From: an uncultured Actinomycetes bacterium
GTDB taxonomy: Bacteria; Actinomycetota; Thermoleophilia; UBA2241
Length of the DNA: 64,000 nt
Direction of reading: 5' to 3'
NCBI GenBank assembly: GCA_963845355.1
Contig: CAWJRV010000041.1
Coordinates: forward strand, 9,235 to 73,234
A program made the position numbers and the translations under genes. Below, piece by piece: positions 5,101 to 50,708 of the stretch (within the stretch, counting starts at the first letter, position 1; the number at the start of each line of letters is the position of its first letter). Under the pieces are notes generated by a model. That model made no database searches. It was not told the origin of the DNA and saw only the letters and a list, made by a program, of their open reading frames with translations.

Positions 5101-5137
5101 AGTCGGACGACCATCACGGGGCGCACCAGAGACGGCG

Positions 5138-7745: not shown

Positions 7746-7759
7746 ACATCGCAGTGACT

Positions 7760-7913: not shown

Positions 7914-7914
7914 A

Positions 7915-7944: not shown

Positions 7945-7970
7945 ACGCGTCGCCGGCGGGTTCGGCGATG

Positions 7971-8639: not shown

Positions 8640-8721
8640 TTCCACCGCCTCACACTCTGACCCATCTTCGACGCGCTGGCCGTTTGTTGCAAATTGCAAC
8701 AAACGGCCAGCGGCCACCACC

Positions 8722-10281: not shown

Positions 10282-10321
10282 GAGGTGGGGACACCTCCGT
10301 CGGCCCGCACCCTGAAGCATG

Positions 10322-10335
10322 TCGACTGACGTCAA
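10322..10335. promoter_or_regulatory. Crp/Fnr-type operator half-matched palindrome TCGAC-N4-GTCAA upstream of the crp-family gene
   Basis: TCGACTGACGTCAA differs by one base from the perfect TTGAC-N4-GTCAA site at 11201-11214. It lies in the divergent kinase/crp intergenic region. Confidence 0.4.
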
Positions 10336-10397
10336 GGCGGACGGGCCTGTTGGCCCTGCCACCTCATCATAATCCCACCGGGCATATACTCGGCGAC

Positions 10398-11066: not shown

Positions 11067-11199
11067 GGCGGGGGCGAACCGACCCGACGCCCACGTCGGC
11101 CGAATCCCGGCCCGGCCTGTCGTCACCGGCTTCTCGTGCGGCTGTTCGACGGAGACGCAATGGCCGCCAGGCCCTTCTGTCGTTCCGCGTACGGCCCCA

Positions 11200-11243
11200 C
11201 TTGACCCAAGTCAAGGGAACGCTGCCCCCGTTGCGGGTACGGT
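11200..11243 (+). promoter_or_regulatory. class II-type Crp/Fnr-dependent promoter: palindrome CTTGACCCAAGTCAAG plus -10-like TACGGT
   Basis: Perfect 16-bp palindrome at 11200-11215 (TTGAC-N4-GTCAA core). TACGGT at 11238-11243 places the site centre about 42 nt upstream of the predicted transcription start. It sits upstream of ferredoxin-cooS and just downstream of the crp-family gene. Confidence 0.5.
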
Positions 11244-11334
11244 GGGTCTGGCGCAGGGACTCCCTGCTCCGACCGTCAAGCCTCGACGTAGCCCGCCGGC
11301 CGGCGGGCTCCTCAGCACGAAAGCGAGCCGCACC

Positions 11335-11724
11335 ATGACCGTAGTGACGCGCAGCATCGTCCACATCGACGAGGAGAAGTGCACGGGCTGCGGCCTGTGC
11401 GTCATGCCTTGCGCCGAGGGCGCCATAGAGATCGTCGACGGCAAGGCCAGGGTCGTCAAAGAAGAGCTCTGCGACGGCGCCGGTTTTTGCCTGGCGGTCT
11501 GCCCCGAGGGCGCCCTGACCGTCGAGCAGCGCGAAGCCCCGGCGTTCGACGAAGACGCCGCTGCAGAGAAGATGGCCGCCAAGCTCGCCGCCGGCGCGAT
11601 CATGACCCAGACCTGCTTCAGCTGCGGCGCCAACGAGATGGACCGCCCGCTGCTGCCGGTGCGCACCAGAGGCGAGAGCACCTGGGTCTGCGTCAAGTGT
11701 CTGCCCGGCCTGATCCACGGATGA
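11335..11724 (+). CDS. 2x[4Fe-4S] ferredoxin-domain protein with C-terminal CxxC...CxxC zinc-ribbon-like extension
   Basis: ATG 11335 within track ORF 10921..11724, giving 129 aa. Contains CTGCGLCVMPC and CDGAGFCLAVCP cluster motifs, then CFSC-x22-CVKC. Its stop overlaps the region just before cooS. Confidence 0.8.
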   Translation: MTVVTRSIVHIDEEKCTGCGLCVMPCAEGAIEIVDGKARVVKEELCDGAGFCLAVCPEGALTVEQREAPAFDEDAAAEKMAAKLAAGAIMTQTCFSCGANEMDRPLLPVRTRGESTWVCVKCLPGLIHG

Positions 11725-11738
11725 CAACGAGGAGGACC

Positions 11739-13622
11739 ATGGAGACCACAGGAACACGCGACAGCCTTCACGGCTCGGTGAACACCATGCTGGAGCGCGC
11801 CCGCGCCGCCGGCGAAGACACCGTCTTCGACCGCATGCAGGCGCAGGGCGAGAAGCGCTGCCAGTTCTGCGAGGGCGGCATTCGCTGCTCGATCTGCTCG
11901 CAGGGCCCCTGCCGCATCACGAGCAAGGCGCCGCGCGGCGTCTGCGGTATCGACGCCGACGGCATGGCCATGCGCGGCTTTCTGCTGCAGAACACCATGG
12001 GCACCGCCGCCTACACCTACCACGCCGGCGAGGTCATGAAGACCCTCGCTCAAGCCAGGCCCGGCGGCACCTACGAGATCAAGGATCAGAGCAAGCTCGA
12101 GCTGCTGGCCCGCGCCGCGGGTGTCGAGCTCGAGCCCAAGGGCACGCTGCCCAAGCGCGTGGCCGACACCATCTGGGCCGAATTCAACCGCGACCATCAC
12201 GAGGAATCGCCGCTGGTCGCCGCCTTCGCGCCGGCGCCGCGGGTCGACGCTTGGCGCAAGCTCGGCGTCATGCCCGGCGGCGTGCTCCACGAAAACAACC
12301 GTGCCACCACGAGCTGCATGACCAACATCGACGGCGACTACGTCTCGCTGGCCGTCAAAGCCCTGCGCCTGGGCATCGCCACCGCCTACGGCGTCCAGGT
12401 GCCGCTCGAGCTCGCCCAGGACGCCCTGTTCGGCACGCCCACGCCGCACGCCATCAAGGTCGACCTCGGCATCCTCGACGCCGGTTACGTGAACATCGTG
12501 GTCAACGGCCACGAGCCCATGATCGGCGCCGCGCTGATCGCCGCCGCTCATGCGGAGGCAGTCCAGGCCAAGGCCCGCGCCGCCGGCGCCAAGGGCCTGC
12601 ACATCGTGGGCAGCATCGAGACCGGTCAGGAGCTCGTTCAGCGCTTCCCCGTCGACGACGTCTTCGTCGGGCTCACCGGCAACTGGCTGAACCAGGAGAT
12701 GGCGATCGCCACCGGCGCCGTCGACGTCTTTGCCGCCGACATGAACTGCACCGTACCGACCCTTGCCTCGACCTGCGCCGCCCACGGCGCGCTGCTCATT
12801 CCGGTGAGCGACCTGATGGGTATCCCGGGCGCCGAGCCGGCCATCGTGTTCGACGCGGCCAAGGCCGGCGAACAGGCCCAGGAGCTCATCGCCAAGGCGA
12901 TCGACAACTACCCGCAACGCGCCGCGCGCGGCAACGGCAAGCCCGCGCTGCGCACCGGCGACGCCGTCGCCGGATTTTCGACCGAGAGTATCCTCGCGGC
13001 GCTCGGCGGCTCGCTCGACCCGCTGCTCGACGTGATCAAGGCAGGCACGCTGCGCGGCGTCGCCGGCCTCGTTAGCTGCACCACGCTGCGCGACTCGGGC
13101 CAGGACAGCAATACCGTGGCCGTCGCCAAGGAGCTCATCAAGAACGACGTCCTGGTGCTCTCGATGGGCTGCGGCAACGCGGCCTGCCAGGTCGCCGGCC
13201 TGCAGGCGCTCGAGGCCAAGGAGCTCGCCGGTCCCGGCCTGAAGGCCGTCTGCGAGCTGCTCGGCATCCCGCCGGTGCTCAGCTTCGGCACCTGCACCGA
13301 CACCGGCCGCATCATGCTGCTGGTCGGCGCCATCGCCGACGCCCTGGGCGTCGACGTACCGGCGTTGCCCGTCGTGGCAACGGCGCCCGAGTACATGGAG
13401 CAGAAGGCCACGATCGACGCCGTCGCGGCGCTGGCCTTCGGCATGTACGTGCACGTCAACCCGGTGCCCTTCGTGACCGGCGCCCCGCGCCTGGTCAAGC
13501 TGCTGACCGAGGACCTGCCCGGCGTGACCGGCGGCAAGCTCGCCGTCGAGACCGACCCGGTCGAGGCCGTCGGCGCGATGCTGGCGCACATCGAGGCGAA
13601 GAGGACGGCGCTCGGGATCTAG
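11739..13622 (+). CDS. cooS: anaerobic Ni-Fe carbon monoxide dehydrogenase catalytic subunit
   Basis: 627 aa from ATG 11739, preceded by GAGGAGGA. The N-terminal cluster region CQFCEGGIRCSICSQGPCRI, GVCGIDADGM, MGCGNAAC and FGTCTDTGR are typical of CooS/HCP-family CODH. Confidence 0.93.
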   Translation: METTGTRDSLHGSVNTMLERARAAGEDTVFDRMQAQGEKRCQFCEGGIRCSICSQGPCRITSKAPRGVCGIDADGMAMRGFLLQNTMGTAAYTYHAGEVMKTLAQARPGGTYEIKDQSKLELLARAAGVELEPKGTLPKRVADTIWAEFNRDHHEESPLVAAFAPAPRVDAWRKLGVMPGGVLHENNRATTSCMTNIDGDYVSLAVKALRLGIATAYGVQVPLELAQDALFGTPTPHAIKVDLGILDAGYVNIVVNGHEPMIGAALIAAAHAEAVQAKARAAGAKGLHIVGSIETGQELVQRFPVDDVFVGLTGNWLNQEMAIATGAVDVFAADMNCTVPTLASTCAAHGALLIPVSDLMGIPGAEPAIVFDAAKAGEQAQELIAKAIDNYPQRAARGNGKPALRTGDAVAGFSTESILAALGGSLDPLLDVIKAGTLRGVAGLVSCTTLRDSGQDSNTVAVAKELIKNDVLVLSMGCGNAACQVAGLQALEAKELAGPGLKAVCELLGIPPVLSFGTCTDTGRIMLLVGAIADALGVDVPALPVVATAPEYMEQKATIDAVAALAFGMYVHVNPVPFVTGAPRLVKLLTEDLPGVTGGKLAVETDPVEAVGAMLAHIEAKRTALGI

Positions 13623-37879: not shown

Positions 37880-38911
<1,032 letters not shown>

Positions 38912-39073
38912 GTCGAAAAGTCTCCGCAGCAGGTCGCGTTCGGTAGGGCGACTCCCATTCTAGCCCTATCGGTGACTGCGGACCGGGCGCCGCGACGGGC
39001 GCGGCGACGGGCGCGGCGTCAGGCGCGGCGGTGGTCGTCGCGACAGGCGCGGCGATGGCCTACGCCGGGATCG

Positions 39074-39427
39074 TCAGGCGCGCGGCCGGTACCCTTCGCT
39101 GAGCGCCGCCCGGCGGCAGGTGCGACACACGGAGACGTGGCGGGCAGTGAGCGGCGAGACCATGTGAAAATGGCCTGCGTGCTCACCGAGATGCTCACCG
39201 CAGAGGTCGCAGCGAGCGTACTCGCGCGACTCGGGACCAAGCGGCTGGGACTGCATTCTGGAGAGGGGCTGATCGGCGGAGGCACTCGCGAGAAGCGACA
39301 ACGCGGCCGGATCGGTCGTTGTTGCGACCGCTGCGCCGGGCGACGGCGTGAGGGCTGCGGGCGCTGAGGCGAGGGCCGCGGGGGGCGGAGCTGGGCGGTC
39401 TGGCGACCGTGCGGAAGCATGTTCCAC
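39074..39427 (-). CDS. hypothetical protein with C-terminal Cys/His-rich (zinc-ribbon-like) segment
   Basis: GTG 39427 after AGGAGA. The C-terminus is CDLCGEHLGEHAGHFHMVSPLTARHVSVCRTCRR. The track ORF start at 39640 lies in the AT-rich promoter island and is less likely. Confidence 0.4.
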   Translation of the reverse strand: MEHASARSPDRPAPPPAALASAPAALTPSPGAAVATTTDPAALSLLASASADQPLSRMQSQPLGPESREYARCDLCGEHLGEHAGHFHMVSPLTARHVSVCRTCRRAALSEGYRPRA

Positions 39428-39706
39428 AATGACACTCTCCTGTCCGGTGGGGGGACCGCCGCCGCGCTTGCTGGGGACCGGCGGCGGAGCGGGGTGTCCG
39501 GAGCGGTGGTCTTCTGGTACCCGGCGATCCGGCCCGGCAAACCCCTCGATGCGCAGGGAAAACGCACGGCCGCCGAGCTTAATATAAGTCACTCCATCAT
39601 GAATATGGCTCTTATCCCTGGCCGTGAGTGGAATAACCAATCCTCATTCGACAGATAACACTAGACTATCCATAATGGGGGTCACCGTCCGCGAGCAGGG
39701 GGAGCA

Positions 39707-40678
39707 ATGACGACGACCACACCCGACATACCGGCCGTGACCGGCGGCGTGCTCCTCTTTCGCAGCTGCCTGATCTCGACCGAGTACCCGGGCGCCGAAG
39801 CGGCCACGAAATGGCTCTTTGAGCGCTTCGGCATCGAGTACACCGTGCATCCCGAGCAGAGCTGCTGCACGGGCCTCGGCTACTACTCCGAGCTGGTGCC
39901 GGTGGCGACTTCGGTCGCCCTGGCCGCGCGCAACGCCTGCGTGGCGGTCGAGGACGGCCATCCCGTCATGAGCTACCTCTGCTCCACCTGCTATGCCATC
40001 AACAAGAAGGCGCGCAACATCCTGCAGGTGCCCGAGTACCGCGCCGACACCAACCGCGCCCTGGCCGGGATCGGCCGCCACTACGACGATCGCGTCGCCG
40101 AGACCGTGCGCCACAGTCACGTTCTCGAGATCCTCTGGGGAGCGCACCACTCGATCCCGGCGCTCGTCGAGCGCCGCCTCGACGGCATCAAGGTCGCGAC
40201 CCACCCCGCCTGTCACTACTGCAAGGTCTTTCCCGACGAGGTCGTCGGCGACGCCGAGAACTTCATGATCCCCGAAGATCTGCTCGACAGCGCCGGCGTC
40301 GTCAAGACCGGCGCCTACAACGAAAAGACGATGCACTGCGGCCGCGGCTTTCGGCAAGGGTTCGTCAACCCCGCCATCTCGATGGCGGTCACCCGCGAGA
40401 AGCTCCGTCACCTCGCCCAGGAGCACATCGACGTGCTCGTCCACATGTGCCCGAACTGCGCCATCCAGTTCGACCGCCATCACGAGATCCTCGAGCGCAG
40501 TTCCGGCGAGGAATACCCATTCGTTCACCTGCATGTACAGCAGTTGCTCGCCCTCGCCCTGGGCGCCGACCCCGACAAGGTCTGCGGCGTCGCGTCGCAC
40601 TCCCAGGACGTCGAGCCGCTGCTCGAGCGCATCGGCGCGCGCGACAGGGTGACCGTGGCAAGCGGGAGCTCCCGATGA
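39707..40678 (+). CDS. hdrB: heterodisulfide reductase subunit B-like protein (two CCG-type domains with variant motifs)
   Basis: 323 aa. The first domain has SCCTG...CSTC, and the second has HPACHYC...MHCGRGF...MCPNC. This is the overall HdrB/GlpC-type Cys pattern, but with CCT and HCG in place of CCG. Confidence 0.8.
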   Translation: MTTTTPDIPAVTGGVLLFRSCLISTEYPGAEAATKWLFERFGIEYTVHPEQSCCTGLGYYSELVPVATSVALAARNACVAVEDGHPVMSYLCSTCYAINKKARNILQVPEYRADTNRALAGIGRHYDDRVAETVRHSHVLEILWGAHHSIPALVERRLDGIKVATHPACHYCKVFPDEVVGDAENFMIPEDLLDSAGVVKTGAYNEKTMHCGRGFRQGFVNPAISMAVTREKLRHLAQEHIDVLVHMCPNCAIQFDRHHEILERSSGEEYPFVHLHVQQLLALALGADPDKVCGVASHSQDVEPLLERIGARDRVTVASGSSR

Positions 40679-43600
40679 GGGCCGGCGTCTTTCTGTGCCA
40701 GTGCGGCGGCAATATCTCCGGGGTCCTCGACCTCGAAGCCCTCTCGCAGGTCGCGCGCCAGCTCGACGGCGTCGTGCACGTCAGCGTCAACCAGTTCATG
40801 TGCGGCACCGAAGGGCGGGCCGACATCGAGGCCGCGGTCGAAGAGCGCGGCCTCGACCACTTCATCATCGGCTCGTGCTCGCGGCGCTTTCAGGGGCCGA
40901 CGTTCGAGCGGATCGCCCGTGAGCTGCGCCTCGGCGAGAACGCCGTCGCCTTTGCCAACCTGCGTGAGGGCTGCTCGTTCATCCACCGGGACGAACCCGA
41001 GAAGGCCCAGAAGAAGGCCCAGAAGATCGTCGCCGCCGCGGTGGCGCGAGCGGTCCATCAGAGCGATTTGCCGCGCTCGCGGACCTTCCTGCACCGTGCC
41101 GCGCTGGTCGTCGGCGGCGGCATCGCCGGGCTGTCTGCCGCCGAGGAGCTCGCCGACGCGGGCATCGAGGTGCATCTGGTCGAGCGCCAGCAGAGCATCG
41201 GCGGCTACATGGCCCGTCTCTCGAAGACCTTCCCGACCGAGGACTGCGCCATGTGCTCGCTGGCGCCGCGCCTTACCAACGCCGCGACCGACTCGCGCAT
41301 CCACGTTCACTCGTTGAGCGAAGTGACCAAGATCAGCGGACCTCCCGGCGAGTTTCGGGCCACGATCAGGCACAAGGCGCGATACGTCAATGAGAAGTGC
41401 GTGGGCTGCGGCGAGTGCGTGCCGGCTTGCCCCGTGAAGGTCAGAAGCGAGTTCGACTTTGGCGTGACCGAGCGCACCGCGATCTCGCGTCCGTTCGCCA
41501 ACGCCGTGCCGGCGACCTTCGCGATCGACCGCAAGGGCTGGTCGCCGTGCAAGACCGCCTGTCCCGTCCACACCTCCGCACAAGGCTATGTGGCCCTGGT
41601 CGCCGCGCGGCGTTTCGACGACGCCTACCGCGTGGCCAGCGACCCCAACCCGTTCCCGAGCGTCTGCGGTCGCATCTGCACCCACGTCTGCGAGACCGAG
41701 TGCACCCGCGGCCAGGTCGAGGAACCGATCGCCATCGCGGGTCTCAAGCGTTTCGTCGCCGACACCGCCATGCCCGCCGAACCGCCCGCGCCGATCCCGC
41801 CCGTGTACGGCGAACGCGTCGCCATCGTGGGCGGCGGTCCGGCCGGCATGACCGCCGCCCGTGAGCTCGCTCGCTTCGGCTACGCCGCCACCGTGTTCGA
41901 GGCGCTGCCCAAGGCCGGCGGCATGCTGCGCGTCGGCATACCCGAATACCGGCTGCCGAAGGATGTGCTCGATCGCGAGATCGAGCACATCCTGGCGCTC
42001 GGCGTCGAGCTGCGCGCGAACCAGCGCGCGGGCTCCGACTTCACCGTCGACTCGCTGCTTGCCGACGGCTACAAGGCGATCTTCCTGGCCACCGGCCTGC
42101 AGGCGAGCAAGAGCCTGCCCCTGCCAGGTCTCGAGCAGCGCGGAGTGGTGCGAGCCGTCGAGTTCCTGCGCGAGCAGGCGCTGGGCCAGTCGCCCACGAC
42201 GGGCAAGCGTGTCGTCGTCATAGGCGGCGGCGATGTGGCCTTCGATGCCGGGCGCACGGCGTTTCGCTGTGGCGCCGAGTCGGTCCATCTGGCCTGTGTC
42301 GAGGACGAGCGCACGCTGCCGGCCTCGAGCGAAGAGCTCGAGGAAGGGCGCGAGGAGCGGGTCGACATAGAGTACGCGCTCATGCCGGTCGAGATCCTCG
42401 GCGCCGACGGCGAGGCGAGCGGCGTGCGCTTCCAGCGTTGCACGCTGGGCGAACCCAACGAGCGGGGCTGGCGGCCGCCGGTGCCCGTCGAGGGCGAGTT
42501 CGTCGAGATCGAGGCCGACACGGTGATCTTCGCCATCGGCCAGGCGCTGGTCGACGATTTCCTCGGTGGCGCCGACGGCGTGGCCGTCGAGAAGGGCCAG
42601 ATCGCCGTCGACCCGGAGACGATGATGACGGGCCGGCCGGCCGTGTTCGCCGGCGGCGACGCCGCCGCCATGGGACCCTGGACCGCCATTGAGGCCATCG
42701 CGGCCGGCCGCCGGGCCGCCCGCGCCATCCACAACTTCCTGCGCGGCGAGCAGATGGTCGCCGTCTGGGACAGCGTGCTCGACAAGGCGAAGATCCCGCA
42801 CACCGATCTGGCGCCGCTCGAGCCGCAGGCACGCCGCATCATGAAGACCTTAGACGGCGTCACGCGGCGCACCACATGGCACGAGGTGCGGCTGGGCTTC
42901 TCAGAGGAGGACGCGGTCGCCGAGGCCGGTCGCTGCCTGGACTGCGCGGTCTGCTCGGACTGCCGTTCGTGCGTGGAGGCCTGCCCGGCCGACGCCATCG
43001 ACTTCGAACAGAAGCCGAGCGAAGAAGAGATCACGGTGGGCGCCGTCATCATCGCCACCGGCCACAAGGAGTTCGACGCCGCGCGCAAGCTGCCCCTGGG
43101 GTTCGGACGGCTGGACAACGTGCTCACCCAGAGTCAGCTCGCTCGCCTGCTGTCGGCCAGCGGACCGACCGGCGGCGAGCTCGTGCGACCGAGCGACGGC
43201 AGCGTGCCCAAGAAGATCTTCATGCTGCAGTGCGTCGGCTCGCGCGACTGCACCTCGACCGGCAACGAACACTGCTCGGCGATCTGCTGCCTGTTCGCCA
43301 CGTTGCACAGCTCGCTCATCATGCAGCACGACCCCGACGCAGAGGTGACGATCGCCTACACCGACCTGCGCGCGCCCGGCAAGGCTCACGAAGAGTACTA
43401 CCGGCTCGTCCAGTCACGCGGCGTGCGCTACGTGCGCGGCCGCATCGCAGAGGTCGTCGAGGAGCCCGACAAGAGCCTGCGGGTGCGACTCGAGGACACC
43501 GTCACTGGGCGCAAGTCCGATGAGCTGTACGACCTCGTCGTGCTGTCGGCCGGCCTCGAGGCAAGTGACGGCACGACCGACATCGCCCGCATCGCCGGAC

Positions 43601-44022
43601 TGCAACAGGGGGCCGGCGGTTTCATCAAGGAATACCATCCCAAGCTCAAGCCGGTCGACACCCAACGATCCGGCATGTTCGTGGCCGGCACGGCGCAGGG
43701 GCCCAAGAGCATCCCCGATTCCATCGCCCAGGCCAAGGCCGCAGCCTCGCGGGTCATGGCCATGCTCTCGACGGGGTTCGTGCTCACGCCGGCTCAAGTG
43801 GCTTCATCCGACGAGAGCGTCTGCATCGGCTGCGGCGTGTGTGAGAGCGTCTGCCCGCAGAGCGCGGCCTCGCTGGTCGGCGACGGCGGCGAGCATCCCC
43901 ACGCGCTCATCGAGGTCAACGCCTGCCGCGGTTGCGGCATCTGCGCGGCGGAGTGCCCGTCGGGCGCGATGACGCTGGGCGGCTTCTCCGACGACGAGAT
44001 CCTCGCCGAGGTGATGATCTGA
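40675..44022 (+). CDS. hdrA: HdrA-like FAD/Fe-S oxidoreductase with an inserted GltD/NfnB-like NAD(P)H-binding module
   Basis: ATG 40675 (ATGA overlap), 1115 aa. HdrA N-terminal Cys domain (FLCQCGGNI) and VVGGGIAGLSAAEEL. Insert: CKTACPVHT...PFPSVCGRICTHVCETECTRG followed by VAIVGGGPAGMTAAREL...GIPEYRLPKDV. It then returns to HdrA (MLQCVGSRD, CSAICC) and ends with two ferredoxin motifs. Confidence 0.85.
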   Translation: MRAGVFLCQCGGNISGVLDLEALSQVARQLDGVVHVSVNQFMCGTEGRADIEAAVEERGLDHFIIGSCSRRFQGPTFERIARELRLGENAVAFANLREGCSFIHRDEPEKAQKKAQKIVAAAVARAVHQSDLPRSRTFLHRAALVVGGGIAGLSAAEELADAGIEVHLVERQQSIGGYMARLSKTFPTEDCAMCSLAPRLTNAATDSRIHVHSLSEVTKISGPPGEFRATIRHKARYVNEKCVGCGECVPACPVKVRSEFDFGVTERTAISRPFANAVPATFAIDRKGWSPCKTACPVHTSAQGYVALVAARRFDDAYRVASDPNPFPSVCGRICTHVCETECTRGQVEEPIAIAGLKRFVADTAMPAEPPAPIPPVYGERVAIVGGGPAGMTAARELARFGYAATVFEALPKAGGMLRVGIPEYRLPKDVLDREIEHILALGVELRANQRAGSDFTVDSLLADGYKAIFLATGLQASKSLPLPGLEQRGVVRAVEFLREQALGQSPTTGKRVVVIGGGDVAFDAGRTAFRCGAESVHLACVEDERTLPASSEELEEGREERVDIEYALMPVEILGADGEASGVRFQRCTLGEPNERGWRPPVPVEGEFVEIEADTVIFAIGQALVDDFLGGADGVAVEKGQIAVDPETMMTGRPAVFAGGDAAAMGPWTAIEAIAAGRRAARAIHNFLRGEQMVAVWDSVLDKAKIPHTDLAPLEPQARRIMKTLDGVTRRTTWHEVRLGFSEEDAVAEAGRCLDCAVCSDCRSCVEACPADAIDFEQKPSEEEITVGAVIIATGHKEFDAARKLPLGFGRLDNVLTQSQLARLLSASGPTGGELVRPSDGSVPKKIFMLQCVGSRDCTSTGNEHCSAICCLFATLHSSLIMQHDPDAEVTIAYTDLRAPGKAHEEYYRLVQSRGVRYVRGRIAEVVEEPDKSLRVRLEDTVTGRKSDELYDLVVLSAGLEASDGTTDIARIAGLQQGAGGFIKEYHPKLKPVDTQRSGMFVAGTAQGPKSIPDSIAQAKAAASRVMAMLSTGFVLTPAQVASSDESVCIGCGVCESVCPQSAASLVGDGGEHPHALIEVNACRGCGICAAECPSGAMTLGGFSDDEILAEVMI

Positions 44023-44564
44023 TGCCGCCCGCACAGCTTGTGGCCGAGCCCGCGCAGCCGGCGCCATCGAGCGCCGTCGCCGGCGACACCGGCGCTGCCG
44101 GCGACGAGACACCGCGCCAGATCGTCGCCTTCTACTGCCGCGAGTGCGCTTACGCCGCCGCCGACGCAGCCGGCAACGCCCGCACCTCGTTGCCGACCAC
44201 CATCCGCAGCATCCTCGTGCCGTGCACGGGCAGGGTCAACCCCCTGCATCTGCTGACCGCCCTGGCCGAGGGCGCCGACGGTGTGTACGTTGCCGGCTGC
44301 CTCGAGGGCCAGTGCCACTACCGCGAGGGCAACTTTCACGCGATCGACCGCGTGAAGTTCTGCCAGCGGCTGCTCGAGTCGGTCGGTGTCGAACCGGAGC
44401 GCGTGCAGATGTTCACCATGAGCGCCGCCGACTCACCGCGATTCGTGGCGGTGGCGCACGCGATGCACCGTGTCATCAGCGACCTGCCGCCGTTGCGCCG
44501 CTCGGACGACGACTTCGGCGAGGCCGCGACGGCCTCGACCGGCGCTGCCGCACAGGGAGCCTGA
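44022..44564 (+). CDS. mvhD: MvhD/FlpD-like (methyl-viologen-reducing hydrogenase delta subunit family) protein
   Basis: ATG 44022 overlaps the hdrA stop (TGATG). IVAFYCRECAYAAAD...LVPCTGRVNPLHLLTALAEGADGVYVAGCLEGQCHY is the family signature. Confidence 0.85.
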   Translation: MPPAQLVAEPAQPAPSSAVAGDTGAAGDETPRQIVAFYCRECAYAAADAAGNARTSLPTTIRSILVPCTGRVNPLHLLTALAEGADGVYVAGCLEGQCHYREGNFHAIDRVKFCQRLLESVGVEPERVQMFTMSAADSPRFVAVAHAMHRVISDLPPLRRSDDDFGEAATASTGAAAQGA

Positions 44565-44565
44565 G

Positions 44566-45012
44566 ATGCCGCTGACCAGGAGGGGCGCAGCGATCTTCGA
44601 GCGGCTGCCCCTGGCGTCTCCCCAGGAGAGCACCGGCGCCATCGGCTGCCTGATCGTGCGCCACGAAGAGCTCTGCATCGGCTGCGGCCGCTGCGTCGAT
44701 TCCTGCCCGTCGGGAGCCAGCAGCAGGGGCACGACCTTCGATCCCCTGCAGATCTTCGACGCACCCGTGGAAACGCGGCGTGGCGCGCTCGGCGCCGCCT
44801 TGCGGCGCATAGCGCGCCACGCCCCGTCGGGCCCCATCGAGGTGCCGGAGCGCGTCACGTCGTTTCGCACGATCGGCTACGACGAGGAGGTCTGCCTGGG
44901 CTGCGGCACCTGCGCCCGCATCTGCCCCACCCAGGCCGCCGAAGCCAGGCCGCTCACCGCCGAGAAGATCCACGAACTCATGGCCGAAGCCACAGAGAAG
45001 GCGGTCCCATGA
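44566..45012 (+). CDS. 4Fe-4S dicluster ferredoxin-domain protein
   Basis: ATG 44566, 148 aa. Contains CIGCGRCVDSCP and CLGCGTCARICP. Confidence 0.75.
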   Translation: MPLTRRGAAIFERLPLASPQESTGAIGCLIVRHEELCIGCGRCVDSCPSGASSRGTTFDPLQIFDAPVETRRGALGAALRRIARHAPSGPIEVPERVTSFRTIGYDEEVCLGCGTCARICPTQAAEARPLTAEKIHELMAEATEKAVP

Positions 45013-47465
45013 GCGCCGCGATCACGGACGCCATCGCCGGCGACACGGCGGCCCTCAAGCCGCTCGTGCTGCTCTGTGAATGTGCCGGCACCATGCCGAA
45101 CATCGACTTCGACGAGCTCGCCATGTTCGCCGACATGAAGGCCGACGTGCTGCGCGGCGTGACGTGGTGCAGCCGCGAGGGCCAGGCCCGGCTGCTCGAG
45201 CTCATGGAGTCTCGAGCCGGAGGCGAGGCCGGCGACGGGCGCCGACTCGTCTTCGCGGGCTGCTCGCAGGACTTCGCCAACCGCCGCTTCAACCGCCTCA
45301 TCCAGCGGGGCCTTGCCATGAGCGTCGCCGACATCCGCGAGGGCTGCGCCTGGGTGCACGGCGACGACGTCGCCGGCGTCACCGACAAGGCCTGTCGCAT
45401 CGTCGACGCCGCACTGACCTACCCTGAGGCTGCCGCCGACAAGCTGGTACGCGAGAAGAGGGTCGACTCCGTGCTCGTCATCGGGGGGGGCGTGGCCGGC
45501 ACCCAGGCCGCCGCCGAGCTCGCCCAGATGGGCCATCACGTGGAGCTCGTTGAGCGCCGCTCGTTCCTGGGCGGCCGCGCCGCGCGCATCGGCACGGTCT
45601 TTCCGACCAACGACTGCGGCCAGTGCCTGCCGACCACCGACGCCCAGGCCGGCACGCGCAAGTGCTTCCATCGCAACGTCGCCATCGACAATCCCAATCT
45701 TCATATCTGGCGGCGCACCACGGTCGAGTCGGTCGCCGGCGAGGCCGGCGCCTTCGAGGTCTCGCTGCGCCGGCTGCCCAACGTCGTCACCGGCGACTGC
45801 GTGGGGTGCGGCATCTGCGAGTCGGTCTGCGAGGTCGCGAACTCGGAAGGCAACGGCAAGGCGATCTACGCTGAGTTCTACGACGGCCGCGTGCAGCGCA
45901 CGGTCGATCTCGAGACCTGCACGTTCTGCGGCGCCTGCGCCGAGGCCTGCCCCGTGGACGCGGTCGACTTCACCCAGTCGCCTGAGCTCACCACCATCCC
46001 GGCCGGAGCCATCCTCACCGCCGTGGGTTGCGAGCCGGCTCCCCAGACGCTCATCGACCACCTCGGCTACGGCCACGACGGCGTCGTCACCCAGACAGAG
46101 CTTGCCGAGCTCATGGACGACTGGCAGGAGCAGTCGTGGCTCGGACGGCGACCGGCTCGCGAGATCGTCATGATCCAGTGCGCCGGCTCCCGCGACCGCC
46201 GCCGGTTGCCCTACTGCTCCCGGCTGTGCTGCATGATCGCACTCAAGCACGCCATCCGGCTCCGCACCCTGTTCCCCGAGATGAAGGTGACCATCTGCTA
46301 TCTGGAGCTGCGCGCCGCCGGCGTGGGCTATGAGAGCTGGTATCTCGAGGCACGCCGCGCCGGCGTGGAGTTCCTGCGCGGCACCCCGCCGAACGTGCAG
46401 TTCGACGAGAAGGGCCGTCCCGTGATCGAGGTCGAGGACATGACGGCCGGCGGCAAGAAGCTGCTGCGGCCCGACCTGGTCGTCCTGTCGACGGGCATGG
46501 TGCCGGCGACCGACGCCGAGCGCATCGCCTCCGTCCTCAAGGTCGATCTCGACGAGGACGGCTTCATCGAGATCCTCGATCGCAAGAACCGCGCCACCGA
46601 GACCACCGCCGAGGGCGTGTTCGTCTGCGGCTCGGCGGCCGGCCCCAAGGCGCTCGTCGAAGTCAATACCGAGGCCTCGGCCGTGGCCAGCGAGATCCAC
46701 AACTTCCTGCTCTCGGCCGGGCGCCGCATGGCGGCCCCCTCGACGGTCGAGGCGGCCGCCTGTGTGGGCTGCGACACGTGCATCACGATGTGCCCGTTCG
46801 GCGCCATCGAGCTGGTCGAACGCCCGGCCGACGAGCCGCGCCCCGCCGAAGTCAAAGACGACGGCAAGCTCGCGGTCATCGACGAGCAGGCCTGCCGCGC
46901 CTGCGGCATCTGCGCCGCGAACTGCCCCGAGATGGCGATAGTCCACAACCTCGACGACGACGCCCTGTTCGGACGACTGGCGATCATGACGGAGGGCGTC
47001 GAGCGGCCGGTGATCGGCTTCTTCTGCAAGGAGTGCGCGGGGGCGGCCATCAGCCTGAGCGGCTTGCGTCACGACGCCTACCCCGAGAACGTGCGGCTCG
47101 TCCAGCTCCCCTGTCTGGGGCGCGTGAGCGCGCTGCACATCGCCGAAGCCGCCCGGCTCGGCGCCGCCGGCGTGTTCCTGGCCGGCTGCGCCGAGGGCCG
47201 CTGCCAGTACCGTCGCGGCGACCTGTCGGCGGCCGATCAGGTCAAGCTGGCCGGCGAGCTGCTTGCGGAGGCCGGCCAGAGCATCCCCCTCGAGCTCTGG
47301 CACCTGTGCGCCGTGGACCGTCACACCGTGGGCCGCCGCATCCGTCACTTCTGCGCCGTCGCGAAAGACCCGGACGCCGCGCGCGCCGCTGTTCCGTCAT
47401 TCGTCGCCTCCGCGACAAGCGGGGCCTGTCAGGGAGGTGAGGACTGTGCCCACATCGGTGGCTGA
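45009..47465 (+). CDS. hdrA: HdrA-MvhD fusion protein (HdrA2-like)
   Basis: 818 aa. N-terminal Cys domain (LLCECAGTM), VLVIGGGVAGTQAAAEL, ferredoxin motifs, and MIQCAGSRD...CSRLCC. The C-terminal MvhD-type segment is IGFFCKECAGAA...QLPCLGRVSALHIAEAARLGAAGVFLAGCAEGRCQY. Confidence 0.85.
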   Translation: MSAAITDAIAGDTAALKPLVLLCECAGTMPNIDFDELAMFADMKADVLRGVTWCSREGQARLLELMESRAGGEAGDGRRLVFAGCSQDFANRRFNRLIQRGLAMSVADIREGCAWVHGDDVAGVTDKACRIVDAALTYPEAAADKLVREKRVDSVLVIGGGVAGTQAAAELAQMGHHVELVERRSFLGGRAARIGTVFPTNDCGQCLPTTDAQAGTRKCFHRNVAIDNPNLHIWRRTTVESVAGEAGAFEVSLRRLPNVVTGDCVGCGICESVCEVANSEGNGKAIYAEFYDGRVQRTVDLETCTFCGACAEACPVDAVDFTQSPELTTIPAGAILTAVGCEPAPQTLIDHLGYGHDGVVTQTELAELMDDWQEQSWLGRRPAREIVMIQCAGSRDRRRLPYCSRLCCMIALKHAIRLRTLFPEMKVTICYLELRAAGVGYESWYLEARRAGVEFLRGTPPNVQFDEKGRPVIEVEDMTAGGKKLLRPDLVVLSTGMVPATDAERIASVLKVDLDEDGFIEILDRKNRATETTAEGVFVCGSAAGPKALVEVNTEASAVASEIHNFLLSAGRRMAAPSTVEAAACVGCDTCITMCPFGAIELVERPADEPRPAEVKDDGKLAVIDEQACRACGICAANCPEMAIVHNLDDDALFGRLAIMTEGVERPVIGFFCKECAGAAISLSGLRHDAYPENVRLVQLPCLGRVSALHIAEAARLGAAGVFLAGCAEGRCQYRRGDLSAADQVKLAGELLAEAGQSIPLELWHLCAVDRHTVGRRIRHFCAVAKDPDAARAAVPSFVASATSGACQGGEDCAHIGG

Positions 47466-48645
47466 GTCCGCCTACGAGACCGTCTTCGCGCTGGCCGAGG
47501 ACTGCCGCCAGTGCTACCAGTGCGGGCAGTGCGTGGGCGCCTGTCCCAGCGGCTTCGACCTGCAGCAGGGGCCGCGACGCATCGTGCGCCTGATCCTCGC
47601 GGGCGACGTCGACGCGCTCCTCGAAGCCGAGGACGTCTGGCGCTGCAGCGAGTGCCGCGCCTGCACCGACGCCTGCCCCATGGAAGTGCCTGTCGCCGAG
47701 ATGATGGCCGCCGTGCGTGCGCTGCAGCGCACGCACGGCGGCGCCCGCTGCGCGGAGCGCGCGGCCGCCGACGTCGCCGACAAGCGCCTGGCGGGTAGTC
47801 CGCGCATCGACAACATGGCGTTCGGCGTCGGCATGGCCACTCGGGGCTACGTCCCCAAGGACGTGGTCGGCGCGGCCGGAGCGGCCGCCAGGATCGTCAA
47901 GGGCATGCTCGACAGGAGCGAGCCGGCGACGAACGGAGTTGCTGCGGCGACGGGCAGCGCGGTCGCGGCGACAGGCGGCGCGGTCGCGCCGCTCGCCGGC
48001 ACACCGCTCTACGCCGGCTGCGCGCTGCCCCAGGACCGCGAGGCGCATGCCTTGACCCACAAGGTCGCCCGCGACCTCGGGCTGCCCCTCGTCGAGGCCG
48101 GCGACGCCGGCTGCTGCGGCCATCCCACCCGCGGTCAGGCCGCGGCCAAGTTCGCGAGCGACGAACCGGTCGTCACGGCCTGCCCGGCCTGCGACCAGGG
48201 CCTGCGCGAATCGGGTCTCACCACCACACCGCTCTGGCAGGTGCTCGTGGAGCACGCCGAACGCAGCGGCCGCACGCTGCGCGCGGTGCAGCCCGCCTTC
48301 GTCCCATACGTCGGCTGCCTGAGCGCGCGCGGCCCCGCCCTGAGCTCGCTCGGCACGGCGGCCACGCTCGCCGGCGCCTCGATGCAGATGAGCTACCCGT
48401 CGTTGCACGCCGGCTGCTGCGGCGCCCTCGGCGGCATGTACCGGGGCGCGACCGAGGCGGTCGTCAAACTGATCGCCTTCGCCCAGAGCAAGAACGCACC
48501 CATCGTCACGCCGTGCCTGCTGTGCCGCGACAACGTCAGGTCGGCCGTTCGCAAGCACGGCGGCAACACCCCGGTCTACTTCTGGCCCGAGTTCTTCCAG
48601 GCCGCCGGTCCCGCCGAGCCGTCCCAGGGAGACGCCGATGACTGA
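47446..48645 (+). CDS. HdrC-HdrB fusion (HdrD-like) protein with two canonical CCG domains
   Basis: GTG 47446 after GGGAGGTGAGGA. The N-terminus has CYQCGQCVGACP and CSECRACTDACP. The C-terminus has CCGHP...CPAC and CCGALGG...CLLC. Confidence 0.8.
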   Translation: MPTSVAESAYETVFALAEDCRQCYQCGQCVGACPSGFDLQQGPRRIVRLILAGDVDALLEAEDVWRCSECRACTDACPMEVPVAEMMAAVRALQRTHGGARCAERAAADVADKRLAGSPRIDNMAFGVGMATRGYVPKDVVGAAGAAARIVKGMLDRSEPATNGVAAATGSAVAATGGAVAPLAGTPLYAGCALPQDREAHALTHKVARDLGLPLVEAGDAGCCGHPTRGQAAAKFASDEPVVTACPACDQGLRESGLTTTPLWQVLVEHAERSGRTLRAVQPAFVPYVGCLSARGPALSSLGTAATLAGASMQMSYPSLHAGCCGALGGMYRGATEAVVKLIAFAQSKNAPIVTPCLLCRDNVRSAVRKHGGNTPVYFWPEFFQAAGPAEPSQGDADD

Positions 48646-49369
48646 ATCACCACAAGACAAGGGCGCCGACGGCGCGGCCGTGAAGCCGCCGGAAGCGCCA
48701 CCCGACGCCGCCGAGCCGGTGCGCGTCAACCCCTACGCCGTCATCGCCGAGGGCGAGTTCCACGAGCGCCCGCAGGCGCGCATGGACCTCGTCACCCGCA
48801 TCACGAGCGACCCCCGCATGCACGACCACAAGGACGGTTTTCTGTCGTGCCTGCAGTGCGGCGTGTGCACCTCGGGCTGCCCGGCGGCGCGCTTCACCGA
48901 CTACTCGCCGCGCGACATCGCCCGGCGCGCCTACGAGGGCGACCCCTCGCTGCTCGAAGACGACAGCGTCTGGTACTGCTTCTACTGCTACACCTGCCAG
49001 AGCCGCTGCCCGCGCAAGAACAGCGTGGCCGTCGTGAACCAGGTGATCCGCAGCATGCAGGTCGAAAGCGGCTACGGCATCAAGCATGTGGAGATGTTCG
49101 CCGCCTGGGGCCAGCAGTTCTACGACAAGGGGATGGGCGGCACGCCGAACGTGTTCTTCAGCGACATCGCCGAGGCCTGGGGACCCAAGTGGAAGGCGTT
49201 CATCGCCAACCGCGACGCGCTGCGCGAGGAGATCGGCGTGGGCGGCATGTACCCCTCGGATGCCGCCGTAGCCGAGGTGCGCACCGTCATGGAGCAGACC
49301 GGCTTCAAGGCCCGCCTCGAGAGCCTCGGCGCCTGGGGCGGCCACCGGCCTGACGACGACCAGGAGTAG
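48638..49369 (+). CDS. hdrC: heterodisulfide reductase subunit C-like protein
   Basis: 243 aa. Contains CLQCGVCTSGCP and CFYCYTCQSRCP. It overlaps the preceding gene by 8 nt. Confidence 0.8.
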   Translation: MTESPQDKGADGAAVKPPEAPPDAAEPVRVNPYAVIAEGEFHERPQARMDLVTRITSDPRMHDHKDGFLSCLQCGVCTSGCPAARFTDYSPRDIARRAYEGDPSLLEDDSVWYCFYCYTCQSRCPRKNSVAVVNQVIRSMQVESGYGIKHVEMFAAWGQQFYDKGMGGTPNVFFSDIAEAWGPKWKAFIANRDALREEIGVGGMYPSDAAVAEVRTVMEQTGFKARLESLGAWGGHRPDDDQE

Positions 49370-49394
49370 CGTAGCGACGTCACCCGCGCCCGCC

Positions 49395-49403
49395 TGCTAG
49401 AAT
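49395..49403 (+). promoter_or_regulatory. extended -10 candidate TGcTAGAAT upstream of the MoaD/ThiS-like gene
   Basis: CTGCTAGAAT at 49394-49403, followed by the hairpin GCCCCGCGCC-GTG-GCGCGGGGC and a GAAGGAG SD. Confidence 0.3.
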
Positions 49404-49464
49404 CGGCCGAGATGCCCCGCGCCGTGGCGCGGGGCGCCCGATCGAACGCGAAGGAGTGGTCTCC

Positions 49465-49731
49465 GTGGCAAAGGTGCGCGTCAAGCTTCCGCTCGGCGTC
49501 ACATACCCCGACCCGCAGAAGGAGGTCGAGTGCGAGGGCGCGACCGTCGAAGAGGTCATCACGGCCGCCATCGCCGCCGAGCCGCGGCTCGAACCCCGCA
49601 TCTACAAGGACGGCAGGCTCTACGTGGGTGTGTTCGTGAACGACCGTAACATGCGCGCCCTGGGTGGCCTCGAGGCGCCCGTGTCCGACGGCGACGTGAT
49701 CCGCGTCCTGCCGCCGATCGCCGGCGGCTGA
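49465..49731 (+). CDS. MoaD/ThiS-family ubiquitin-like sulfur-carrier protein (C-terminal GG)
   Basis: Ends ...DGDVIRVLPPIAGG. GTG 49465 lies 8 nt after GAAGGAG. The track start at 49456 lies within the SD. Confidence 0.75.
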   Translation: MAKVRVKLPLGVTYPDPQKEVECEGATVEEVITAAIAAEPRLEPRIYKDGRLYVGVFVNDRNMRALGGLEAPVSDGDVIRVLPPIAGG

Positions 49732-49790
49732 GCCGCCTGCGCCACCCCCGCCCCAGCCTCACCGACGAAAGCCAGAAGGACGGCTCCCCG

Positions 49791-50708
49791 ATGACCGACT
49801 TCTCCGACTCGCAGCAACAGCTTCGCGACCTCGCCGCCGAACGCGACGCGGTCATCCTGGCGCACAACTACCAGCGCCCCGAGGTACAGGACGCGGCCGA
49901 CTTCGTGGGCGACTCGCTGGAGCTCGCCCGCAAAGCCGCCGCCACCGACGCCGCGGTGATCCTCTTCTGCGGCGTGCACTTCATGGCCGAAACGGCGAAG
50001 ATCCTGTCGCCGGGCAAGACCGTGCTCATGCCCGACACGCGGGCCGGCTGTCCGATGGCCGACATGGTGACGGTCGAAGGCCTGCGCGCCCTCAAGGCAC
50101 AGCACCCCGACGCCGCGGTCGTGGCCTACGTCAACACCAGCGCCGACATAAAGGCCGAAGTCGACGTCTGCTGCACGAGCGCCAACGCGCCCGACGTCGT
50201 GGCCACCATCCCGGCCGAGCAGCCGATCATCTTCGTGCCCGACCGCAATCTCGGCGACTGGGTCGCCGGTCGGACCGGCCGCACCAACATGATCATGTGG
50301 AACGGCTACTGCCCGGTACATGAGGAGATGACCGCGGCCGAGGTGAGCGCCGCCCTGGCCGCGCACCCCGACGCGGAGCTCATGGCGCACCCCGAGTGCA
50401 ACCACGAGGTGCGCGCCCTGGCGACCGTGATCACCAGCACGTCGGGCATGTTGCGCCACCCGGCCACGAGCGCGGCGCACAGCTTCGTCGTGGCGACCGA
50501 GACGGGCCTGCTGCACCGCCTGCGCAGCCTCTATCCCGATCGCGAGTTCGTGCCGGCCGCACGCGGCGCGGTGTGTCCGAACATGAAGCTGACCACGCTC
50601 GACAAAGCGATCCAGGCACTCGACGAGGGTCTCAACGAGATCGTGGTGCCGCCCCGCATAGCGGCGCGGGCGCTGGCCGCGGTCGAACGCATGATGAAGG
50701 CGACGTAG
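49791..50708 (+). CDS. nadA: quinolinate synthase
   Basis: 305 aa. Contains ILAHNYQ, FCGVHFMAETAKIL, AYVNTSA, HPEC and CPNMK. Confidence 0.95.
   Translation: MTDFSDSQQQLRDLAAERDAVILAHNYQRPEVQDAADFVGDSLELARKAAATDAAVILFCGVHFMAETAKILSPGKTVLMPDTRAGCPMADMVTVEGLRALKAQHPDAAVVAYVNTSADIKAEVDVCCTSANAPDVVATIPAEQPIIFVPDRNLGDWVAGRTGRTNMIMWNGYCPVHEEMTAAEVSAALAAHPDAELMAHPECNHEVRALATVITSTSGMLRHPATSAAHSFVVATETGLLHRLRSLYPDREFVPAARGAVCPNMKLTTLDKAIQALDEGLNEIVVPPRIAARALAAVERMMKAT

Follow-up and report, generated by a model that had tools for sequence, protein, structure and literature searches.

A candidate asymmetric, NAD(P)H-fed Hdr-type complex encoded by a conserved seven-gene operon in an uncultured soil actinobacterium

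Flavin-based electron bifurcation by Hdr-type complexes is textbook knowledge in methanogens and is known in some strict anaerobes. A 64,000-nt stretch of DNA (~70% GC; referred to here as the window) from an uncultured Actinomycetes bacterium (Thermoleophilia; UBA2241), a soil actinobacterium, carries a seven-gene operon (g1 to g7) which, in a reading that we hold to be about evenly balanced, would encode an asymmetric, soluble and cytoplasmic Hdr-type electron-bifurcating complex fed by NAD(P)H. Conceptually the same job is done by FlxABCD-HdrABC of Desulfovibrio, an NADH-fed Hdr-type system with an MvhD-like FlxD which bifurcates to ferredoxin and to a protein disulfide (DsrC); in the present operon, however, there is no flxABC, the NADH site is fused in HdrA and no dsrC lies nearby. 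No purification or assay of an HdrA protein with an NAD(P)H module fused into it in this way (HdrL, type III) is known to us.

The 2009 definition of HdrL is that of an HdrA joined to a glutamate-synthase part, which has an NADH site and mvhD as the next gene (PMC2702500). A 2025 survey of archaeal HdrA named the same architecture 'type III HdrA', its use of NAD(P)H being only predicted, and modelled the GltD domain beside the inserted ferredoxin domain, where it was proposed to block ferredoxin access and to feed in NADH electrons; in ANME-1 the type III gene sits with several other hdrA genes, and HdrA-MvhD fusions were classed as 'type Ia' (PMC12054007). As the first-pass annotation of the window had suggested, g2 fits the definition of an HdrA/glutamate-synthase fusion followed by mvhD (PMC2702500, PMC12054007), since mvhD (g3) lies directly 3' of it. 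The insert architecture and the adjacent mvhD are shared with HdrL of Desulfobacterium autotrophicum and with the type III proteins of ANME-1 and Bathyarchaeota, which are genome-predicted only, and the ANME-1 clusters resemble this operon also in containing further hdrA genes. Differences were, however, evident. HdrL1 and HdrL3 of D. autotrophicum are selenoproteins, whereas g2 is without selenocysteine, and the archaeal type III proteins keep both K409 and E356, where the present clade has Leu and Ala. The nearest full-length HdrL relatives are 39-43% identical and keep the Lys, many of them being ~1500 aa long with a second flavin domain. Neither an invariable order of seven genes that starts with HdrB and ends with HdrC, nor a dimorphism of NADH and NADPH cassettes has been described for HdrL or type III. 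The literature searched on Hdr in Thermoleophilia, Dormibacteria and Acidimicrobiia gave no published description of the operon; at the outset, too, no characterisation of this exact architecture was known. HdrL/type III clusters as such were already known; new here are the NADH-type motif, the cassette exchange, the unequal HdrA subunits and the PFOR/Hox context in Dormibacteria.

Every Hdr subunit type of the methanogen MvhAGD-HdrABC complex (5ODC, 9SFI, 8RVU, 7BKB), together with MvhD, is also found here, and the two module copies fit its dimeric core. In contrast to that system, the operon has no MvhAG, Fdh or Fmd, its halves are non-identical, the NAD(P)H module is fused and the distal CCG motif of g1 reads H-C; the NCBIfam equivalog cutoffs were all missed (g1, g2, g5, g7), the host is bacterial and no CoM/CoB pathway was in view in the 64-kb window. 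Methanosarcina HdrA2B2C2, a type Ia enzyme dependent on F420H2 and ferredoxin, has the C-terminal MvhD fusion seen in g5, but the partner of g5 is a predicted HdrD-like fusion instead of separate HdrB2 and HdrC2, and HdrL is always encoded with it as a second HdrA. In class II benzoyl-CoA reductase two HdrA units are fused, and of their two FAD one bifurcates and the other does not (cryo-EM preprint 10.64898/2026.04.10.717634). This BamBCDEFGHI complex is like ours in the single hallmark FAD of the HdrA pair, the HdrBC-fusion exit, the MvhD-type adaptor and the pyridine-nucleotide input; it differs in having the HdrA pair as one polypeptide, a HydBC/NuoEF-like NADH module and a tungsten AOR-type BamB exit, and no BamB-type gene lies near the operon. 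The insert of g2 resembles parts of StnABC/NfnABC (Bfu-type transhydrogenases) and NfnAB, its best solved matches being the GltD-like domains of 9bov_A, NfnA and StnC, and that of StnC has been shown experimentally to be a non-bifurcating NADPH input to a separate bifurcating module (PMC10482914). In contrast to Stn and Nfn, the recipient here is HdrA-type, not HydBC-type, and the motif is C-V-E-D, not Y-R-R. Compared with sHdr, both HdrA are long proteins that contain four ferredoxin-type motifs, the genes do not follow the arrangement hdrC1B1A-hyp-C2B2 and no lbpA, dsrE or tusA neighbours were found; the sHdr HdrA 6tjr_A matches the flavin core alone of g2 and g5.

Genes in and around the operon were called with guidance from GC at third codon positions (GC3), followed by Pfam on the concatenated proteins. 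Seven co-directional genes with a strong GC3 coding signal were obtained, and all genes and domains of the Hdr/Mvh-type cluster that the first-pass annotation had placed at 39707-49369 were confirmed. HdrA-, MvhD-, HdrC- and HdrB-type modules occur twice each, in the following order.

39707..40678, + strand: g1, HdrB-like, 323 aa (Pfam CCG x2, E 2.8e-15)
40675..44022, + strand: g2, HdrL / type III HdrA, 1115 aa, its HdrA core interrupted by a GltD/NfnB-like NAD(P)H-FAD-2x[4Fe-4S] module
41536..42939, + strand: GltD/NfnB-like insert, g2 residues 288-755 (468 aa); the HdrA alignment breaks at residues 287/756
44022..44564, + strand: g3, MvhD-type [2Fe-2S] adaptor, 180 aa (Pfam FlpD, E 1.8e-42; NF045873, 124 bits)
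44566..45012, + strand: g4, 2x[4Fe-4S] ferredoxin-like protein, 148 aa (Pfam Fer4 x2)
45009..47465, + strand: g5, HdrA-MvhD fusion (type Ia HdrA), 818 aa, with FlpD at residues 668-757
47437..48645, + strand: g6, predicted HdrD-like (HdrC-HdrB) fusion, HdrC-type 2x[4Fe-4S] plus two CCG motifs (Pfam, PDB alignment)
48638..49369, + strand: g7, HdrC-like, 243 aa (NF041890, 203 bits against a cutoff of 270; 5odc_C, E 3e-19)

Five of the junctions overlap as had been described, with ATGA at g1/g2 and g4/g5, TGATG at g2/g3, 20-29 nt at g5/g6 (set by the choice of the g6 start codon) and 8 nt at g6/g7; the description fails for g3 and g4, which do not overlap and are separated by a one-base spacer. 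No transmembrane segments were predicted in g1-g7. The AT-rich region previously taken for a promoter island was recovered, with a single promoter-like site.

39550..39700, no strand: AT-rich intergenic island 5' of g1, ~50% GC against a genome background of ~70%
39648..39676, + strand: promoter-like site TCGACA-17-CATAAT, ~30 nt 5' of the g1 ATG

This site, a consensus match only, was the sole sigma-70-like match in 38900-49900 (shuffled mean 0.4).

Residues 2-287 and 756-1111 of g2 aligned to the contiguous residues ~5-291 and 289-644 of methanogen HdrA (640 residues, E 1e-173), with NCBIfam scores of 703 for the HdrA2 model (cutoff 1100) and 627 for the HdrA model (cutoff 1400). The insert is positioned between both cluster motifs of the inserted ferredoxin domain of HdrA, and thereby within the arm that reduces ferredoxin. 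It matched Fer4_20 and Pyr_redox_2 in Pfam and, in the PDB, 9bov_A (E 3.6e-111), NfnA 9n5u_A, StnC 8oh5_C and NfnB 4ylf_B/5jca_L, with E values from 1e-111 to 1e-77, and the g2 translation contains the Fe-S motif CGRICTHVCETEC and GGGPAG. Homologues of g2 with 1112-1118 aa and 65-93% identity were numerous, the named ones belonging to metagenome-assembled genomes (MAGs) of Gaiellaceae, Thermoleophilia, Actinobacteria and Candidatus Dormibacteria; clustering at 50% reduced the entire clade to one representative, the next full-length HdrL-type proteins being those at 39-43% identity. The HdrA Fe-S motif set is full, comprising the N-terminal domain, D-C-x-x-C, C-x3-C-C and the inserted and C-terminal ferredoxin domains, and its cysteines are invariant among the homologues of g2 (66) and of g5 (56).

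An orthologous operon without the insert was found at 7243-13310 of locus L085, on a contig of 58% GC, with a g1 80% identical to ours. Its first HdrA, of 642 aa, is 67-74% identical to the g2 core and is without exactly residues ~298-754, and its MvhD and ferredoxin are fused in one 286-aa protein. An assembly chimera at the insert junctions, which the first-pass annotation had allowed for, was excluded, since the same junctions recur in 66 independent assemblies and L085 is cleanly without the insert. The shared junctions and this clean absence show that the insert is a discrete biological module and no assembly artefact. The gene calls divide the second HdrA of L085 in two, possibly because of a frameshift.

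Both HdrA paralogues recognised by the first-pass annotation, one of them with the NAD(P)H module, are present, but they are not equivalent. K409 and E356 (M. thermolithotrophicus numbering) have been proposed as flavin markers of bifurcating HdrA and are conserved in all archaeal type III proteins (PMC12054007). The equivalent positions, K409 being the N5-contacting Lys, were read from the alignment to 5odc_A.

43303..43305, + strand: g2 Leu877, at the position of K409 (alignment to 5odc_A)

Across 66 members of the g2 clade this position is Leu in 61 and Leu, Val or Ala in all 66, with Lys in none, and the E356 equivalent of g2 is Ala823. In g5, which aligned to 9sfi_A and 5odc_A with both ferredoxin domains intact and whose best NCBIfam match was NF040770 HdrA2 (466 bits, under the cutoff of 1100), the K409 equivalent is Lys413, kept in 55 of the 56 homologues. 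Distant HdrL relatives retain the Lys, and the insert-less L085 orthologue has the same Thr-Leu-His variant as g2; the loss thus concerns only the first HdrA in operons of this type and does not depend on the insert. Lacking both K409 and E356, the HdrL core of g2 is probably an input subunit and, on these residues, not a second bifurcation site.

The NAD(P)H link that had been proposed at the outset can be sharpened: the motif here is NADH-type, with Y-R-R in about half of the orthologues.

42295..42306, + strand: pyridine-nucleotide specificity position C-V-E-D, g2 residues 541-544, predicted NADH-type

Five PDB relatives (9bov_A, 9n5u_A, 8oh5_C, 4ylf_B, 5jca_L) have Y-R-R where g2 has C-V-E-D, after the second Rossmann strand. 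We take Y-R-R after the second Rossmann beta-strand to be the 2'-phosphate site, and the replacement of two arginines by acidic residues is a classic Rossmann-fold sign of NADH preference; C-V-E-D in place of Y-R-R thus predicts that the g2 module takes NADH. The GltD-like domains of StnC, NfnA and NfnB have all been described as NADPH-binding (PMC10482914 for StnC). Among 66 orthologues, ~34 were of the acidic type (mostly C-x-E-D), namely the group of the window, further Thermoleophilia and every aligned locus of Dormibacteria, Acidimicrobiales and Binatia, and 31 were of the Y-R-R type, all of them MAGs of Thermoleophilia/Gaiellaceae or unclassified Actinomycetota.

Close relatives of the window can have the opposite type, and the genes from g2 to g6 showed the opposite affinity to their flanks.

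~40450..48850, no strand: recombined tract, g2-g6 cassette, with affinity opposite to the flanks

The flanks of locus L031 were nearest to the window by amino-acid identity (NadA 97%, alcohol dehydrogenase (ADH) 96%, hemH 89%, g1 87%, g7 93%), but its g2-g6 are of the Y-R-R type and just 56-77% identical. Locus L028 was reversed, with g2 at 93% and g6 at 85% but NadA at 90%, ADH at 83% and hemH at 74%. Sliding nucleotide identity against L031 and L028 placed the crossovers at ~40.1-40.5 kb, in the 3' part of g1, and at ~48.7-48.85 kb, in the 5' part of g7. This incongruence between g2-g6 and the flanks needs recombination, and g2-g6 behaves, judged by these identities, like an exchangeable cassette of which closely related genomes hold an NADH-type or an NADPH-type version. 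In the same comparison g1 and g7 co-segregated with the genome backbone as g2-g6 swapped, which supports the view that g1 and g7 act as one HdrBC pair.

Scanning one genome per species gave 79 loci, all from MAGs, in Thermoleophilia/Gaiellaceae, Acidimicrobiales, Dormibacteria (some labelled Chloroflexia) and one Binatia; they were sampled in, among other places, fens, bogs, palsa, SPRUCE peat, soils from Denmark, lake sediment and anaerobic digesters. By tblastn mapping, the order g1-g7 was kept in every sufficiently long locus (~60 loci), and g2 and g5 always co-occurred, including in the insert-less L085 and in distant HdrL loci. Flanking genes were clustered across the loci and representatives scanned. 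The hem and NadA flanks of the window were confined to a single subgroup of Thermoleophilia. In a second Gaiellaceae group the operon is preceded by sufC, an intein-containing sufB and sufD and followed by PII and an ammonium transporter, and in Acidimicrobiales it has GH1 and GH94 genes on its upstream side and two genes for ABC exporters on its downstream side. The flanks thus differ between lineages and the operon is not embedded in one known pathway, and its order is kept in four lineages regardless, in line with its earlier description as self-contained.

In all ten mapped Dormibacteria loci, a co-directional upstream run ending ~150 nt before g1 encodes PFOR, a DHODH-like flavoprotein, a ferredoxin, HoxE, HoxF, HoxU, the small and large subunits of a [NiFe]-hydrogenase, a possible protease (without a Pfam match) and HypA.

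~1-9000 of L045-L048, L052, L054-L056 and L070, co-directional with the operon: Dormibacteria PFOR-Hox run

The earlier statement that the operon has no hydrogenase partner is therefore correct for this window but not for the 10 mapped Dormibacteria loci, which follow a PFOR and hoxEFUYH run. These neighbours point to a connection with NAD(H), ferredoxin and H2. Downstream of the Dormibacteria operons, PPK2 was found by scanning, and Nudix, acetate kinase and phosphoketolase genes were seen by eye alone.

HdrL genes at 39-43% identity to g2 lie in four further loci, and HdrL, MvhD and a second HdrA occur together in two of these distant relatives, L081 and L084.

L081, 4648-16246: ETF-QO, HdrD, HdrL, MvhD, a Fer4 protein and a two-flavin HdrA
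L082, 3029-7792: HdrB, HdrL and a thioredoxin
L083, 1096-6751: a DsbH-like thioredoxin-fold gene and two MvhD-type genes (one also with Fer4), then HdrL
L084, 1-9415: a CCG protein, a 1495-aa HdrL, MvhD and a 978-aa HdrA

As regards the remaining subunits, g1 aligned to HdrB 5odc_B over its full length (E 8.5e-39) and scored 326 bits with NF041780, under the cutoff of 450. Its proximal CCG set is canonical (C21, C53, C54, C92, C95), and its distal set is a variant, C169-x-x-C172 ... H210-C211 ... C248-x-x-C251 against the usual C ... C-C ... C-x-x-C; the CCG cysteines and H210 are invariant in 60 homologues. The two Fer4 motifs of g4 are separated by ~55 residues, and g7 has 8 invariant Cys. 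The start codon of g6 is ambiguous (GTG at 47437, 47446 or 47458). Both of its CCG cysteine sets are complete but compact, and the 18 cysteines of its four predicted clusters, including the ten CCG cysteines, are invariant or nearly so in 35 homologues. An AlphaFold2 model of g6 (pLDDT 82.5) was ranked by Foldseek nearest to mycobacterial EtfD 9ojn (E 4e-7), then LutA, then HdrC. The CCG assignment of g6 rests on the cysteine pattern, the Pfam CCG match and this fold search, which replaced hhalign, and the HdrC-like ferredoxin domain, the two CCG sets and the fold matches together identify g6 as a predicted HdrD-like fusion.

From gene content, domain architecture, motif states, conservation and synteny as observed here, we infer complex formation, subunit pairing, the electron path, bifurcation, its direction and its acceptor as follows. 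The complex would follow the plan of the dimeric (HdrABC-MvhD)2 core of methanogens, with halves that have diverged from each other, a plan which the occurrence of two of each Hdr module fits, and would contain ~two dozen (~25) Fe-S clusters and three FAD. One half would consist of HdrL (g2), MvhD (g3) and probably HdrB (g1) and HdrC (g7), and the other of HdrA-MvhD (g5) and the HdrD-like g6; g4 may serve as connector, acceptor or dedicated ferredoxin. NADH (NADPH in the Y-R-R variants) would reduce the FAD of the GltD-like module, from which electrons would pass through the two [4Fe-4S] clusters of the module to the split inserted-ferredoxin clusters of HdrL and, via MvhD-type [2Fe-2S] centres, to the FAD of g5. 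There, at the flavin with the hallmark lysine, the electron pair would be split, one electron going uphill through the intact ferredoxin domains of g5 to ferredoxin, and the other downhill, by way of HdrC-type clusters, to a CCG subunit and its non-cubane clusters, where a disulfide or another high-potential acceptor would be reduced. The reaction may also run in reverse. NADH, at -320 mV, lies midway between ferredoxin (~-500 mV) and a disulfide such as CoM-S-S-CoB (~-140 mV).

In favour of this bifurcating complex are the domain and structure matches of every subunit, the overlapping junctions behind a single promoter-like site, the order kept in four lineages with unrelated flanks, and CooS, PFOR and Hox nearby. 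The D-C-x-x-C cysteines, which in the 2017 methanogen HdrA structure reportedly serve an inter-protomer cluster, are kept in both HdrA types (g2, g5) and also speak for such a complex. Several points weigh against it. The g5 residue at the position of E356 is Ala366, with Glu at -2 and +1, so that g5 has one of the two hallmark residues. With the distal H-C of g1, the chemistry of this subunit may differ from that of HdrB. The C-terminal half of g6 is too diverged from g1 for significance in a profile-profile comparison (hhalign probability 0.2), which gave no proof of HdrB homology from sequence. The insert-less L085 operon indicates that the core can work without the fused NAD(P)H module, no gene for a thiol or disulfide carrier was consistently linked to the operon, all 79 loci are MAG-derived, and the two halves could be separate enzymes. 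As to the high-potential acceptor, thioredoxin-fold genes beside distant HdrL and ETF-QO beside another are weak hints.

More tentatively, and with our doubts somewhat outweighing our confidence, we envisage that the hallmark-less HdrA with its swappable NADH/NADPH module is the input half only and that HdrA-MvhD bifurcates, which would make this an unrecognised class of Hdr that provides abundant, nominally aerobic lineages of soil and peat (Gaiellales-like Thermoleophilia, Acidimicrobiales, Dormibacteria, Binatia) with a means of reducing ferredoxin at low potential with NAD(P)H, or with H2 through Hox, while a thiol or another high-potential acceptor is consumed. The operon is compact, seems self-sufficient and is strongly conserved in four major lineages of uncultured soil and peat bacteria, and it offers natural experiments in the NADH and NADPH cassettes within near-identical backgrounds, the insert-less orthologue and the lysine asymmetry. 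Were the proposal true, it would explain a supply of reduced ferredoxin for CO dehydrogenase, PFOR or hydrogen metabolism in waterlogged soils and would provide a tractable bacterial model for the division of labour between two HdrA units; as a plain redox-homeostasis enzyme, the system would be of modest interest.

It could also be envisaged that the operon encodes two separate enzymes, an HdrL-MvhD-HdrB-HdrC NAD(P)H:disulfide reductase, with or without ferredoxin, and an HdrA2B2C2-like enzyme of g5, g6 and g4. The latter, by analogy with Methanosarcina HdrA2B2C2, might use F420H2, and F420 is made by Actinomycetota and Chloroflexota. This would agree with g5 being a type Ia HdrA whose best NCBIfam match is HdrA2, with the contiguity of g4-g5-g6 and the location of g1 and g7 at the operon ends, and with the proposal that type Ia HdrABC may be without a partner HdrA and bind F420 near FAD (PMC12054007). 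However, we consider it unlikely, as g2 and g5 are always together, even in L085 and the distant HdrL loci, and g2-g6 travel as a single recombination cassette; moreover, g2 without K409 and E356 is a poor stand-alone bifurcating candidate, and the Pfam and NCBIfam scans gave no F420-binding domain (FrhB/FdhB). The first reading of the operon, as a self-contained NAD(P)H-linked bifurcating or confurcating complex with two potential disulfide-reducing sites, is partly supported.

A bifurcating or confurcating complex might instead pass its high-potential electron through the CCG subunits (g6 and/or g1) to ETF, quinone or another partner that is not a disulfide. CCG subunits can serve such acceptors, as does the HdrBC-like BamD of class II benzoyl-CoA reductase, which takes the high-potential electron and has an ETF partner (10.64898/2026.04.10.717634), and EtfD can be regarded as a further example. 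The fold of g6 is nearest to mycobacterial EtfD and then LutA, the distal CCG of g1 is non-canonical, and an ETF-QO gene lies directly 5' of the HdrD-HdrL cluster in L081. Yet g1 and g7 are near canonical HdrB and HdrC (326 and 203 bits with methanogen-type models), the ten CCG cysteines of g6 are invariant or nearly so, thioredoxin-fold genes adjoin distant HdrL genes in L082 and L083, and no ETF genes were found in the flanks of the 79 clustered loci, making a non-disulfide partner rather improbable. Very improbable, in our judgement, is that the operon encodes a reductase of disulfides (or of ferredoxin) which depends on NAD(P)H, does not bifurcate and serves thiol and redox homeostasis in oxygen-fluctuating soils, with the clusters acting only as wires. 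HdrL is without the bifurcation hallmarks, a GltD-like module alone can be a plain NAD(P)H input, the host lineages are usually regarded as aerobic and the flanks are of a housekeeping kind (heme, NAD, Suf); but g5 retains K409, the full HdrA cluster set and both ferredoxin domains, seven subunits with ~25 clusters far exceed the needs of simple disulfide reduction, most of the loci were sampled in fens, bogs, sediments and digesters, and CooS, PFOR and hydrogenase are among the neighbours.

The operon is preceded on the opposite strand by hemE, hemH and a protoporphyrinogen/coproporphyrinogen-oxidase-like gene (hemY) and followed by genes for a MoaD/SAMP1-like protein, NadA, a Cdd1-family protein, ADH and ABC-2 transporters. 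As noted at first, no Mvh hydrogenase, Flx, MetFV, DsrC or lipoate-binding genes are adjacent: among the called neighbours at 35.2-54.9 kb there was no hydrogenase, Fdh, Flx, MetFV, DsrC or lipoate-binding protein domain, and membrane QmoC and a BamB-type tungsten subunit were likewise absent. None of the neighbour genes in the window explains the operon. The search of orthologous loci for a known pathway had the same outcome, with flanks varying by lineage, and hemEHY and NadA were dropped as functional context because they accompany the operon solely in one Thermoleophilia subgroup. Farther upstream, at 10350-13622 (+), the window encodes a Crp/Fnr-family regulator, a 2x[4Fe-4S] ferredoxin and the catalytic subunit CooS of an anaerobic Ni-CO dehydrogenase (TIGR01702, 737 bits against a cutoff of 478), ~26-28 kb 5' of the Hdr operon. 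The organism therefore has ferredoxin-linked anaerobic enzymes, and the CooS locus is a source or sink of low-potential ferredoxin.

A GC-rich hairpin 3' of g7 was no better than shuffled sequence (z = 0.63) and the terminator scan gave nothing useful; no Rfam RNA elements were found near the operon. The MoaD/SAMP1-like protein (ThiS family; 49456-49731, +) is encoded 86 nt 3' of g7 and 5' of nadA; its gene is kept in L002 and L028, whereas L031, with a flank nearly identical in other respects, is without it. An open reading frame of up to 188 aa (38950-39640, -), located between hemE and the promoter of the operon, is a candidate gene only: it has a C-terminal C-x-x-C ... C-x-x-C zinc-ribbon-like motif, gave no family match and failed the GC3 filter. 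At its position, L001 has three extra genes, one of them encoding a radical SAM protein. In an 82%-identical relative (L001/L071, 18833-21490, -), the genes just 3' of the operon encode a ComA (phosphosulfolactate-synthase)-like protein, a PF04060 'FeS' protein and a NifS-like cysteine desulfurase, which may hint at synthesis of a sulfonate or thiol cofactor. The ComA-like gene was not used as a hint of a coenzyme-M-like thiol, as L001 and L071 are one and the same contig, so that a single genome had it, and as it scored 255 bits, under the cutoff of 280.

The SufB of L014 (2390-4912, +), and also of L018 and L066, carries a LAGLIDADG intein (~840 aa against ~470 aa). Elsewhere in the window, a cobalamin riboswitch (7746-7917, -; 85.8 bits) precedes cobU, cobT, cobS and the gene of a CobC-like phosphatase (4417-7745, -), which serve attachment of the cobalamin lower ligand. 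Finally, genes for an FMN reductase-like protein, a carrier-protein-like protein, an AMP-binding enzyme and an MBOAT acyltransferase lie together at 266-4362 (+), the small carrier-protein-like gene being judged by eye alone, with no Pfam match, and their arrangement is like that of a D-alanylation or lipid-acylation module.

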